A stretch of 39,037 nucleotides of DNA from Escherichia phage pO2: sequence record OR228483.1; one strand, written 5' to 3'. This document shows, in pieces, positions 16,347-23,403 of this stretch. The translations under genes were made by a program, and so were the position numbers. The stretch's first letter is position 1; the number at the start of each line of letters is the position of its first letter. The notes beneath the pieces were generated by a model. That model made no database searches. It saw only the letters and a list, made by a program, of their open reading frames with translations, and had not been told where the DNA came from.

Positions 16347-16463
16347 ACTCCCTCCTATCTGTCGTAAGGACTGCATGGTCCGGTTAATAATATAATCGCC
16401 CAGAAACTAACAAATAGTCCCAAGGCTGTAAGTAAGTAAAACATAATCATCCTCACTCTAAGC

Positions 16464-16501
16464 AAAAAAAACCCCTCAAGCACCCGAAGGCACCCAAGGG
16501 G
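16464..16501 (-). terminator. Tphi-like intrinsic terminator after the capsid gene
   Basis: Minus-strand RNA CCCCUUGGGUGCC-UUCG-GGUGCUUGAGGGG then U8; stem uses G-U wobbles so it is strand specific. Confidence 0.8.
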
Positions 16502-16507
16502 TTTCAA

Positions 16508-16798
16508 TTAGTTTGTGAAAGATACGTTGAAGGAACGCACAGGCGAACCGTCATACCCAACAATCACCAGACCTTCCGCGCCAGAGGTGGCCTTGAAGTA
16601 GAGACTGTTGGTTCTACGGGAGTAGCTAACACCATCAGGCGTAGTCACCTCAAGCAGCGACCAATCGGTCACATCTGAAAGCTCAGGTAAGTCAACCTTC
16701 AGGCTGGTCCCCACCGTAGAACTGTACGTCTCTAAGGTAGGACCCTCTGTAGAGAGGGCCTTAAAGGTCGTTAGCCCGCTGACGCTGCTGTGAAAACC
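16508..16798 (-). CDS. gp10B: Minor capsid protein 10B C-terminal extension, reached by a programmed -1 ribosomal frameshift near the end of gene 10A
   Basis: -1 frame open from shifty GGUUUUC (16792..16798) across the 10A stop to 16508; ORF-track 68-aa ORF 16508..16714 is the distal part of this frame. Confidence 0.55.
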   Translation of the reverse strand, partial: GFHSSVSGLTTFKALSTEGPTLETYSSTVGTSLKVDLPELSDVTDWSLLEVTTPDGVSYSRRTNSLYFKATSGAEGLVIVGYDGSPVRSFNVSFTN

Positions 16799-17820
16799 AG
16801 CGCACCCGCCGCTTCAGGACGCAGACCACCGTGACCCATAGCGTACTTACCAACAATCAGGTCGCCCTGAGCATCAACGTCACGGTCACGTTCCAGCGCC
16901 AAGTCACGAAGCTTCACAGTACCCACAGCAGAACGGTGAGAGAACAGGCCCACAACGTTGTCCAGAGCAACTTTAACATTACCAGTAGCAGTAGCTGGGA
17001 AGGCGTGCTTCTGACCAGTCGCAATAGTGATACCATCATCACCACGAGTTTCACCAGCACCACCCTGAGTCAAGTGTGGGACTTCAACAACCACGAAGCC
17101 CATTACGTTACGGATGTTACCAGTCTCTGGGTCAATCAGCGCAGCATAGTTAGCAGCGTTCGGCATCAGAGCCGCGAGGATTGCAGAATAGTTATCCGGC
17201 GTTGTATAGAAATAACGGTCGCCAGCAGGAACGTAGTTGGAGGTCAGTTTCGCACGAGCGATGGTCAGTTGACCGATGATTGCTTCGCCCAGTTTAGCCG
17301 GGGTGTTGAGGTCAGCTTTCGTACCAACTTCCAGTACGGACGCAGTACCCAGACCAGCGATGTTCTCGTTGGATGCAGCTGGGAGGTTACACAAGAGAGC
17401 CGTTTCAGCCAGAACCGCACCATCAGCAGCGATAGCCAGAGCTTCACCCAACTGGTTGGAATACTCACCAGCCACGTCATAGTGGTTCATCGCGTCTTCA
17501 ATGTCGAAAATCATCACATCGGCAGTCAGCAGACCATCAATGGTAATTGTTTTCTCGGTATGTTTGATACCTTTACGCTTATCGGACAGTCGCTCACCCG
17601 GAGCCAGATACACACCAGAGGTGCGACCCATGACCGGGAACTGAGCAGACTTACCGTTCTGAATTGTACGGACAATATGCTTGTCAGCAGTTACAGAGCG
17701 GCGAGTGAATGCGGTCAGGACTTCGCCAGCAAAGACCTTCAGGAACAACGCCAGAGCGTCGGAACCAGATTTGCCTTTACCTTGGTCTGTACCTACTTTC
17801 TGACCCGGAACGTTTGCCAT
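16771..17820 (-). CDS. gp10A: Major capsid protein 10A
   Basis: 349 aa; extensive identity to T7 gp10A (ALFLKVF, KHTEKTITIDGLLTADV, VKLRDLALER, YAMGHGGLRPEAAGA). Confidence 0.97.
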   Translation of the reverse strand: MANVPGQKVGTDQGKGKSGSDALALFLKVFAGEVLTAFTRRSVTADKHIVRTIQNGKSAQFPVMGRTSGVYLAPGERLSDKRKGIKHTEKTITIDGLLTADVMIFDIEDAMNHYDVAGEYSNQLGEALAIAADGAVLAETALLCNLPAASNENIAGLGTASVLEVGTKADLNTPAKLGEAIIGQLTIARAKLTSNYVPAGDRYFYTTPDNYSAILAALMPNAANYAALIDPETGNIRNVMGFVVVEVPHLTQGGAGETRGDDGITIATGQKHAFPATATGNVKVALDNVVGLFSHRSAVGTVKLRDLALERDRDVDAQGDLIVGKYAMGHGGLRPEAAGALVFTAASAG

Positions 17821-17922
17821 ATGATAATTCTCCTATTCAATTGAAAGATAAAGTTTATTACTTGCTTTACGCCCAATCCGTATGGACTGAAGTAATAGGG
17901 GAACCTTGAGTCTGTATCTTGG

Positions 17923-17946: not shown

Positions 17947-18831
17947 CTACAGGCTTGATGCAGCTACCTTAGCGCGAACTTCCATCGTGTACTTAGCGTC
18001 ACGCAGGTATCGCGGGTCACTCATAGCCTTAATCATGTCAGCCTTGGAGCTGAATGCTTCGGTCTGAGGAGCCTTAGGTGCGACCACAGGTTTAGCCTGA
18101 GTGGTGATGGTTCGCTGAGGTTTAACACCTACAGCTTTACCCAGAGTCTTGCCAGCCAGATTCAGCAGAGCTTTGGTAGTCGCAATGTCCTTACGAACGA
18201 TAGCAGCTTCCAGTGCTTCACGAGTTGACGGGTCGTTGGACTCAAGGTGTGACAGGATGCGATTAAACTGTTCAGCACCACCAGCGTAGCGAACCACACC
18301 AGCAGCATACTGTTCAGCAAGAGCTTCCTGACCACGGACAAACGAATCTACGAAACGCTTGGTGTAACCTGCTTCCTGCAACTTAGCGTAGGATGCGTCA
18401 GACAGCTTACCGTCCTTGGCGTATTCAGCCTTGATAGCGGTAATTTCATCAGCAGTGACCTTGCCAGCTTCTACAGCAGAAGACACCATGTCGTCAAATG
18501 CAGCTTCGTTTTCATCCAGAGCGGTGACACTTTCAGTCAGCTCTTTCGGTGCATCACCTAGTTCGATGAACTCAGGCTGCTCACCATCGGTCTCAGACTC
18601 TTCGTCATCGGACTCGATGTCTTCTTCACCATCGGTCTCTTCGACGTTTTCGTCTTCTTCGGTCGCCTCTTCATTTTCAGCTTCCAGTTGCTTGAAGGTA
18701 ATAGCGTCATCGCCATCACGAACAGCTACGTCCTGTTCAAGCATAGACTTCTGGTGTTCGTTCAGGTCCTCAACAGAACCAGTGATTGCATTAGAGCTAA
18801 CGCCGAACTCGGCATAAACTGATTGAGACAT
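17947..18831 (-). CDS. gp9: Capsid assembly (scaffolding) protein
   Basis: 294 aa, highly acidic, between portal and capsid genes. Confidence 0.85.
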   Translation of the reverse strand: MSQSVYAEFGVSSNAITGSVEDLNEHQKSMLEQDVAVRDGDDAITFKQLEAENEEATEEDENVEETDGEEDIESDDEESETDGEQPEFIELGDAPKELTESVTALDENEAAFDDMVSSAVEAGKVTADEITAIKAEYAKDGKLSDASYAKLQEAGYTKRFVDSFVRGQEALAEQYAAGVVRYAGGAEQFNRILSHLESNDPSTREALEAAIVRKDIATTKALLNLAGKTLGKAVGVKPQRTITTQAKPVVAPKAPQTEAFSSKADMIKAMSDPRYLRDAKYTMEVRAKVAASSL

Positions 18832-22758: not shown

Positions 22759-23197
22759 CGTCCAGACCTCCTGTAGCCATAGCGACTGCATATGGCATCA
22801 AGGGCACTTTCGGCTCCTCTATACGTTCGAGAGTCACCTCAGGCTTCAGCCATTTGTTGGCGAACTCATGGGCCTTGTCGTTGTCCTCTGAGTTTAGGTG
22901 TGACATCAGGTTCCAGAAGTTTGAAGACATCTCAGTCTCCTTCTCAACTTGGCGGCACACGTCCCAGTCGTTTACCTCTGAACCGTATCTGTCATCCCAC
23001 ATACCGCTAGCTACGATGGTCAGTCCGATGAATGGACGCCACTCATAAGCCTCAGCGGGAGACTCGGTGTATGACTCAACGTCCTTCTCTGTCAAGGTGT
23101 ATGACCAAGATGCGTAGAACTCACCGTACTTGCGGTGCTCCTTATCGAATTCACCCATTTCAAGGACCAGCTCTTTCAGACTTTCAGGTATCTTCAC
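22748..23197 (-). CDS. Hypothetical protein, 149 aa, acidic
   Basis: ORF between gp5.7 and gp6 (the T7 gp5.9 position) but much larger and unrelated by eye; GTG start with GGAGG. Confidence 0.6.
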   Translation of the reverse strand: MKIPESLKELVLEMGEFDKEHRKYGEFYASWSYTLTEKDVESYTESPAEAYEWRPFIGLTIVASGMWDDRYGSEVNDWDVCRQVEKETEMSSNFWNLMSHLNSEDNDKAHEFANKWLKPEVTLERIEEPKVPLMPYAVAMATGGLDDGC

Positions 23198-23403
23198 AGA
23201 CAGCCTCCGTGTTGGTTAAGGAACTTGGTGCCAGCAGCGGTAATCTCCCACGCACCGTTGTTACGCCCATCCATAGACAGGCAGCTTAGATGTCCACGAC
23301 TCGCAGCCTCAGCCACAAGTGCAGCGTTGTTGCGCACATAGTTGGACTGGAATGTCTTCGGGCAGGACTTAAGGGCCGCTAGGACCCGTAAGTATTCACT
23401 CAT
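23194..23403 (-). CDS. gp5.7: gp5.7-like protein
   Basis: 69 aa; KSCPKTFQSNYVRNNAALVAEAASRGH resembles T7 gp5.7 as recalled. Confidence 0.7.
   Translation of the reverse strand: MSEYLRVLAALKSCPKTFQSNYVRNNAALVAEAASRGHLSCLSMDGRNNGAWEITAAGTKFLNQHGGCL

Follow-up and report, generated by a model that had tools for sequence, protein, structure and literature searches.

Predicted −1 frameshifting at a T7-type slip site would append an Ig-like domain to the capsid protein of a Kayfunavirus phage

We analysed the capsid locus of Escherichia phage pO2 (sequence record OR228483.1; the whole stretch of 39,037 nucleotides is called the window below) and find it very likely that this phage makes, in addition to its major capsid protein 10A, a 437-residue form, 10B, by a −1 frameshift close to the end of the capsid gene. 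The initial annotation had proposed that the arrangement mirrors 10A/10B of phage T7. The slip site, the codon at which it lies and the terminator behind it are indeed homologous to those of T7, but the appended sequence is unrelated to the T7 tail. The reading as a T7-type capsid frameshift is thus supported with one correction, namely that the cargo is a domain of predicted Ig-like fold. The evidence comes from the anatomy of the locus, from the homology of its slip site to that of T7, from purifying selection on the extension and from the fold predicted for it. The arrangement as such is not novel, as it is already known or annotated in close relatives.

Anatomy of the capsid locus

The window reads as a T7-like phage genome in reverse, with the genes of the capsid region on the minus strand and, in the list of open reading frames (ORFs), in the order 9-10-Tphi-11-12. 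Over 16380-17900 it shares 99.9% identity with Enterobacteria phage IME177 (Kayfunavirus, K1F group), and the source phage is a T7-like member of the genus Kayfunavirus (K1F group). The features on which the analysis turns are listed here, with what each rests on in brackets.

18831..17947 (−): scaffolding gene
17820..16771 (−): gene 10A, major capsid protein of 349 residues, HK97-fold Gp10A-like, zero frame (ORF list; Pfam PF21703)
16816..16814 (−): UGA in the −1 frame, six codons 5′ of the slip, the upstream limit for a productive shift (−1-frame translation)
16798..16792 (−): slippery heptanucleotide G GUU UUC, zero-frame codons GUU UUC (sequence)
16736..16792 (−): extension residues 1-19 (HSSVSGLTTFKALSTEGPT), a predicted disordered linker that overlaps the last six codons and the stop of 10A (pLDDT, variable sites)
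16730..16766 (−): candidate 3′ stem-loop CUUUAAGGCCCUC...GAGGGU...CUUAGAG, at +26..+62 after the slip and 5 nt past the 10A stop (MFE, alifold)
16511..16735 (−): extension residues 20-94, a predicted seven-strand Ig-like beta-sandwich, PHROG 7473, no Pfam family (predicted structure)
16508..16714 (−): 68-residue 'hypothetical protein' ORF with a GTG start, as given in IME177 and by ORF finders (weak SD, start not conserved)
16510..16508 (−): UAA stop of the −1 extension, the end of 10B (sequence)
16461..16505 (−): Tphi-like intrinsic terminator, a 17-pair hairpin and U-tract (terminator scan; alignment with the T7 Tphi and K1F terminators)

Gene 10A encodes a protein of computed mass 36.3 kDa that matches the Pfam family Gp10A-like (PF21703) at 2.5e-105. 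Its counterpart in IME177 is annotated as major capsid protein, and in the alignment the position of its C-terminal stop is homologous to the end of T7 10A. The 3′ end of the zero frame reads GCG CUG GUU UUC ACA GCA GCG UCA GCG GGC UAA, so that GGUUUUC lies where the initial annotation had placed it, the UUC codon being 21 nt from the stop. Upstream of the slip the −1 frame is open for six codons, and it continues through the slip site and the 10A stop. Past the slip it runs, as had been claimed, for 94 codons across the 10A stop (HSSVSG...NVSFTN, 16792..16511) and then meets a UAA, 3 nt ahead of the hairpin and hence just before the Tphi-like terminator. The proposed fusion size of 437 residues is accounted for by 343 plus 94, and the junction LVF/HSSVSG is correct as read from the sequence. 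The computed mass of 10B is 45.8 kDa, 9.5 kDa above that of 10A and in agreement with the difference of about 10 kDa foreseen earlier. The junction-spanning tryptic peptide of the predicted 10B would be YAMGHGGLRPEAAGALVFHSSVSGLTTFK (computed monoisotopic 2960.50). The slip heptamer is not a canonical X XXY YYZ; in a review of recoding (PMC5009743), G_GU U_UUC is a recognised heptamer, intermediate between the hexanucleotide and the full X XXY YYZ.

We noted several features of the neighbouring ORFs. The 337-residue ORF that runs antisense to the capsid gene (16831..17844, +) probably reflects only the scarcity of stop codons that is common opposite highly expressed genes. In the ORF list, gene 11 (tail tubular protein A) starts at ATG 16376, with an SD duplex of −1.1 kcal/mol; ATG 16346 has a strong SD, AGGAGGGAGU (−10.7 kcal/mol), yields MAQYIPLN..., which matches the start of K1F gene 11, and is probably the real start. 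Between the Tphi-like terminator and gene 11 lies a small ORF (16355..16444, −) encoding the hydrophobic 29-residue peptide MFYLLTALGLFVSFWAIILLTGPCSPYDR, with GAGG 6 nt 5′ of its ATG. This ORF is a 'hypothetical protein' in phi1_146013, is unannotated in IME177 and is absent in K1F, where gene 11 comes directly after the terminator.

Conservation, selection and predicted fold of the extension

Neither the heptamer nor the open −1 frame is statistically significant when taken alone. GGTTTTCA was observed once, against 1.2 occurrences expected in a window of the same composition. The open −1 stretch past the 10A stop (88 codons) ranks sixth among the 28 genes in the window; the larger ones are real downstream genes, and stretches of 50-77 codons also follow several other genes. 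Since both features are singly within chance, the case rests on position and conservation.

We compared 78 loci, comprising 19 annotated phage records, 58 IMG/VR contigs and the window. In 77 of them NGTTTTC, with GUU UUC in the zero frame, occupies the homologous codon after the motif GGLRPE(A/S)AGA, the sole exception being T3, and the site is found across at least six genera. The base ahead of GUU is G in 72 of the 77 loci, C in three and A in two; tandem re-pairing is therefore not conserved, as would be expected if the Phe tRNA is the main driver of the shift. UUC is followed by A in 76 of the 77, the codon after the slip site takes eight forms among the loci, and the 10A stop follows two to six codons downstream. 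Upstream of the slip site the −1 frame of the same 77 loci stays open for just 6-22 codons, so that entry into it must occur at that site, and downstream for 49-104 codons. No SD-like element is conserved upstream of the slip site in the family alignment, where the Gly codon varies between GGT, GGC and GGA. One contig close to the window (L030, IMGVR_UViG_2974604219_000001) has a −1 ORF of 93 codons, not 95, and matches only the first 54 extension residues (98% identity over residues 1-54), pointing to an indel or to rearrangement in the C-terminal half of the domain.

The 94-residue extension peptide matched 454 phage records by tblastn, at identities down to 42-53%, in Kayfunavirus, Przondovirus (Klebsiella phages), Berlinvirus PP74, Pektosvirus PP47, Caroctavirus CR8 and Ningirsuvirus JA10. 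Many of these matches extend to residue 1, within the overlap with 10A. Past the 10A stop, variable sites at positions 1, 2 and 3 of the −1-frame codons number 24, 17 and 56 in the Kayfunavirus set and 7, 11 and 31 in the Przondovirus-like set, and pairwise dN/dS of the extension is 0.04-0.5 in codon alignments. In the linker, taken as the 21 codons from the 10A stop to the conserved core, the corresponding counts are 8, 4 and 15, and dN/dS is 0.07-0.5 in close pairs. These alignments indicate that the extension, its start-less linker included, is under purifying selection in the −1 frame.

We modelled the extension with AlphaFold2, using a 22-sequence alignment. Residues 1-16 have pLDDT below 50 and are disordered in the model; the remainder contains an all-beta domain of seven strands with pLDDT of about 88-90, the first strand being residues 21-26. 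This bears out the beta-rich C-terminal extension suggested at the outset. In a Foldseek search of the PDB, the top match was the C-terminal Ig-like domain of the lambda tail tube protein (2L04, TM 0.55), and next came filamin repeats and phage capsid or decoration chains. A structure search of a viral library gave one strong match, a 'Minor capsid protein' of Pectobacterium phage PP81, and weaker ones to Ig-like, Big_2, decoration and carbohydrate-binding proteins. The appended domain is predicted on this basis to adopt an Ig-like beta-sandwich.

By sequence, the extension is not a member of a recognised Ig-like Pfam family (Big_2, I-set, FN3). A Pfam scan at E<=1 returned no match for the extensions of the window, a Przondovirus-like member and PP47, while the T3 extension, used as a positive control, gave Big_2 at 4.7e-10. 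The extension does match PHROG 7473, which is described as of 'unknown function'. An exhaustive profile search against 1.84 billion representatives gave 14 matches only, consisting of orphan-called small ORFs and weak multi-repeat matches to heterogeneous Ig-like repeat proteins (BACON, He_PIG, Invasin_D3/Big_1), which argues that the domain is essentially confined to the capsid context. Two candidate kinships were rejected by hhalign: that with the T3 Big_2 domain had a probability of 0.15%, and that with a BACON repeat protein, at 16%, provided no usable link.

Probable expression of the extension

T7, whose capsid protein is homologous, carries an identical G GUU UUC at the corresponding codon, a few codons ahead of the 10A stop (GCA GUG GUU UUC AAA GUG GAG UAA in T7, aligned with GCG CUG GUU UUC ACA in the window), and its −1 extension likewise ends just 5′ of the homologous Tphi terminator with CCCC. 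The two differ in what is appended. The T7 tail is a non-globular, Ala/Glu/Lys-rich sequence of about 53 residues, in contrast to the 94 residues with an Ig-like domain in the window, and the distance from slip to terminator is about 190-200 nt in T7 versus about 290 nt in the window. The window extension has no homology to the T7 10B tail, as the alignment diverges fully from the slip site to the last codon. The T7 10A/10B shift was attributed to −1 ribosomal frameshifting by Condron, Atkins and Gesteland in 1991. As summarised in PMC5009743 and PMC1635266, 10B accounts for about 10% of translations, and the short GGTTTTC by itself gave detectable fusion in a T7 reporter.

In the mechanism that we favour, most ribosomes would read 10A to its UAA and yield the 349-residue major capsid protein. 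A minority would slip one base back at G GUU UUC, with tRNA-Phe leaving UUC to pair with the overlapping UUU; CAC (His) would be decoded next, and translation would continue in the −1 frame for 94 codons to the UAA at 16510..16508. If the T7 figure applies, about one ribosome in ten would make 10B. In this product the entire capsid fold, ending at Phe343, would be joined through a flexible linker of some 19 residues to an Ig-like beta-sandwich of 75 residues. The C-terminus of T7 gp10 lies on the capsid exterior, and the Ig-like domain should therefore sit outside the head. By analogy with relatives, we infer that the shift is ribosomal, that it affects a minority of translations and that 10B is built into virions.

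We considered three other explanations. The one that survives best, while being improbable, is that the downstream ORF is an independent small gene of 68 residues, translated from its own start (GTG 16714) and not fused to 10A. Indeed, IME177, vB_EcoP-R1, PP47, JA10 and many other records have a separate CDS, most genomes offer start codons to gene callers, and some of the Przondovirus-like GTGs have moderate SD duplexes (−7 to −9 kcal/mol). However, no start position is common to the family. Among 67 distinct sequences, ATG, GTG and TTG candidates occur at widely differing distances, −33 to −2 codons, from the invariant VTDW motif, with none universal, and the starts that gene callers choose for the extension ORF fall in five different alignment columns. 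The window has a single candidate start, GTG 16714, the one used in the IME177 record, and its anti-SD duplex is only −2.9 kcal/mol, versus −7.3 for 10A and −10.7 for gene 11. This GTG falls at residue 27, after the predicted beta-strand A (residues 21-26), so that a free 68-residue product would lack that strand if the predicted fold is right; the starts with a better SD (−17 and −8 relative to VTDW) fall within or past strand A. Purifying selection also acts in the −1 frame between the 10A stop and any start, and the ORF is always −1 to 10A and open back to the invariant GUUUUC. The computed coding signature thus runs through a region without an initiation site, which argues that the extension is translated only as a fusion, and we judge the 68-residue ORF to be an annotation artefact representing the 3′ part of 10B.

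Slightly less probable still is transcriptional slippage, in which an extra U would be inserted into the U4 run by the phage RNA polymerase, so that a subset of the mRNAs would encode the fusion in a single frame. A one-base insertion in the T-run would give the identical protein. In minus-strand ORFs of at least 100 residues, U-run contexts are depleted relative to codon-order shuffles: NNU UUC occurs 31 times versus 86 ± 7.6 expected, NUU UUC four times versus 18 ± 4, and NNU UUU seven times versus 22 ± 3.8, the other NUU UUC sites in the window being at 17511 (inside 10A), 7335 and 38207. This genome-wide avoidance of in-frame U-runs could reflect either kind of slippage; it could be slippery-site avoidance or a general bias against U-runs. 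Productive transcriptional slippage, however, generally requires homopolymer runs much longer than four, next to which the U4 run is short. Furthermore, the site functions when moved to a plasmid reporter, and the homologous site of T7 is treated as one of ribosomal frameshifting in the recoding literature (PMC5009743).

Least probable of all, and effectively refuted by the comparative sequences, is a chance coincidence of frame and heptamer or a sequencing indel in one continuous capsid ORF: the heptamer count is at expectation and open −1 stretches of similar kind follow other genes, but the same frame structure recurs in 77 independently sequenced genomes and contigs, with conservation at the protein level, a third-position bias, a confidently predicted domain and a 10A end homologous to that of T7. 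As the slip site is the T7 site by descent, the T7 mechanism, −1 ribosomal frameshifting, is the best-supported explanation.

Relatives, exchange of the cargo and a candidate RNA structure downstream

With an Ig-like cargo, unlike the tail of T7, the window is functionally closer to T3 10B. In T3 and phiYeO3-12, too, a −1 frameshift near the end of gene 10 appends an Ig-like beta-sandwich, of about 85-95 residues (Fraser et al. 2006, as cited in PMC5009743). In contrast to the window, the slip site of T3 is C CCA AAG, with a lysyl codon, and lies two codons further downstream than that of T7; the T3 domain belongs to Pfam Big_2, whereas the window domain has no Pfam match or detectable sequence relation to it. 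A recent preprint also describes frameshifted minor capsid proteins in some T7-related phages, that of T3 with a predicted Ig-like domain.

Closer relatives have the same slip site and terminator context. In Escherichia phage Peacock (MK903279, Kayfunavirus), the extension is about 95% identical, and a two-piece joined CDS with the same relative coordinates is annotated as 'minor capsid protein ... -1 frameshifting'. In Citrobacter phage CR8 (HG818824), the extension is about 52% identical; the record annotates 10A and 10B, marks the tttt run and cites mass spectrometry (MS) matches, the junction peptide not being documented there. Both 10B entries are similarity-based database annotations, with MS for CR8 only. 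IME177, the nearest record to the window, differs in that the fusion is not annotated. The same arrangement is stated for another T7-like coliphage in the announcement of Penshu1 (PMC6753287). For Kluyvera phage Kvp1 (PMC2579914), a −1 shift at TTTTCA in a T7-like capsid gene is reported together with MS peptides unique to the extended C-terminus; in contrast to the window, its extension is short (10B of 42.1 kDa, unique residues 327-372) and, by the description in that paper, lies outside the Ig-like family of the window. A literature search on Kayfunavirus and frameshift returned nothing relevant, and no CR8 paper was found.

Comparison with K1F (NC_007456, locus L019 1627..1830), the type species of the genus, suggests how cargoes may be exchanged. 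K1F shares the CUG GUU UUC site and has a nearly identical terminator, and its extension is a 49-codon T7-type tail (...EETLTPQQKAARTRAAN...; EETLTPxQxAARTRAAN) in place of the Ig-like domain. The window and K1F cease to be homologous immediately past GGUUUUCA and match again from the last sense codon onward (AAC UAA UUGAAACCCC). With breakpoints on either side of it, the cargo behaves as a cassette that can be exchanged while slip site and terminator stay fixed. A review (PMC5009743) reports the view that non-homologous recombination spreads Ig-like domains and at times brings them in out of frame, and the swap is consistent with it.

We also searched for RNA structure that might assist the shift. 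Compared with the canonical cassette (X XXY YYZ, a 5-9 nt spacer and a stem-loop or pseudoknot, as in dnaX and IS911), the window is without a structure at 5-9 nt or a conserved upstream SD-like element. No classical stimulator at that spacing was found in the family, and the candidate hairpin, which at 20-25 nt downstream is too distant to be a classical stimulator, is not universal. In the group of the window the stem-loop has 13 pairs, with 97.4% of cells paired versus 18-67% when slid and one compensatory pair; 13-22 of 500 shuffles reach the observed values. The region has low synonymous diversity at +10..+61, and its folding-stability z-score is −1.98. The Przondovirus-like group has an 18-pair hairpin at +20..+62, with 99% of cells paired versus 35-52% when the 3′ partners are slid. 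Two of its pairs change on both sides (A-U in 17 and G-C in 12; C-G in 18 and U-A in nine), and none of 500 shuffles matches the observed count of double-change cells. In this group the third positions do not vary at all over +19..+43, which places that stretch among the lowest 0.7% of windows along some 900 nt. For the 70 nt after the slip, seven of ten lineages are more stable than shuffles, the exceptions being PP47 (z = +0.5), K1F (z = +1.2) and one Kayfunavirus; z-scores range from −3.45 to +1.2, and given this mixture we claim no stimulator. Support for the candidate hairpin as a frameshift stimulator is suggestive only, since the structure was derived from the same, mutually related sequences.

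A second dip in third-position diversity lies further downstream, at about +175..+205 nt after the slip (about 16616..16586 in the window), over the codons for YSRRTNSLYFKA, in both the Kayfunavirus and the Przondovirus-like sets. It coincides with the most conserved peptide motif of the domain and could reflect codon constraint, recombination or an RNA element.

The known stimulators of T7-type frameshifting are themselves still puzzling. The window has CCCC inside its terminator, at 16501..16498 and about 290 nt from the slip site. In T7, the CCCC in the Tphi terminator, more than 200 nt downstream, contributes to the efficiency of the gene 10 frameshift (PMC5009743). A GGGG close to the slip, as a pairing partner for the CCCC of the terminator (GGGGG at +18 in T7), is not conserved in the family on inspection of the alignment. 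That the terminator, the hairpin at 16766..16730 or both modulate the efficiency of the shift is speculative. Taken together, the observations would also allow a joint reading, which we put forward tentatively and regard as rather unlikely, in which an exchangeable cargo cassette comes with a domain-linked hairpin (at about +20 to +62) that acts as an undescribed modulator of T7-type frameshifting or of 10A termination. Neither the cassette swap nor the hairpin is obviously described in the searchable literature.

Most of the 454 records call the domain a separate 'hypothetical protein', although the correct product is predicted to be a 437-residue minor capsid protein. In addition, an 'XRE family transcriptional regulator' is annotated over the 10B extension in two RefSeq records, NC_048135 (EcpYZU01, L016 612..845 minus) and NC_048071 (IMM-002, ~22936..23217); for NC_048135, the one record for which the strand is shown, the call lies on the strand opposite the extension. 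In vB_EclP_26, a 'hypothetical protein' is placed over the extension on the opposite strand. Given the coding signature on the capsid strand, the XRE and opposite-strand calls look like mis-annotations. The practical value of the present analysis is in fixing this widespread annotation error; the textbook case is extended, and the current understanding is unchanged.

Kayfunavirus and Przondovirus phages are under development against E. coli and Klebsiella. With an Ig-like domain displayed on its surface, the head may adhere differently to capsule, mucus or tissue. It is speculative, and by analogy with what has been proposed for other phage Ig-like domains, that this domain would give weak adhesion to carbohydrate or host surfaces. 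The domain also marks a natural display site. Finally, the family represents a natural series in which one slip site is combined with varied cargoes and 3′ structures, and it could help to explain how T7-type sites are tuned.
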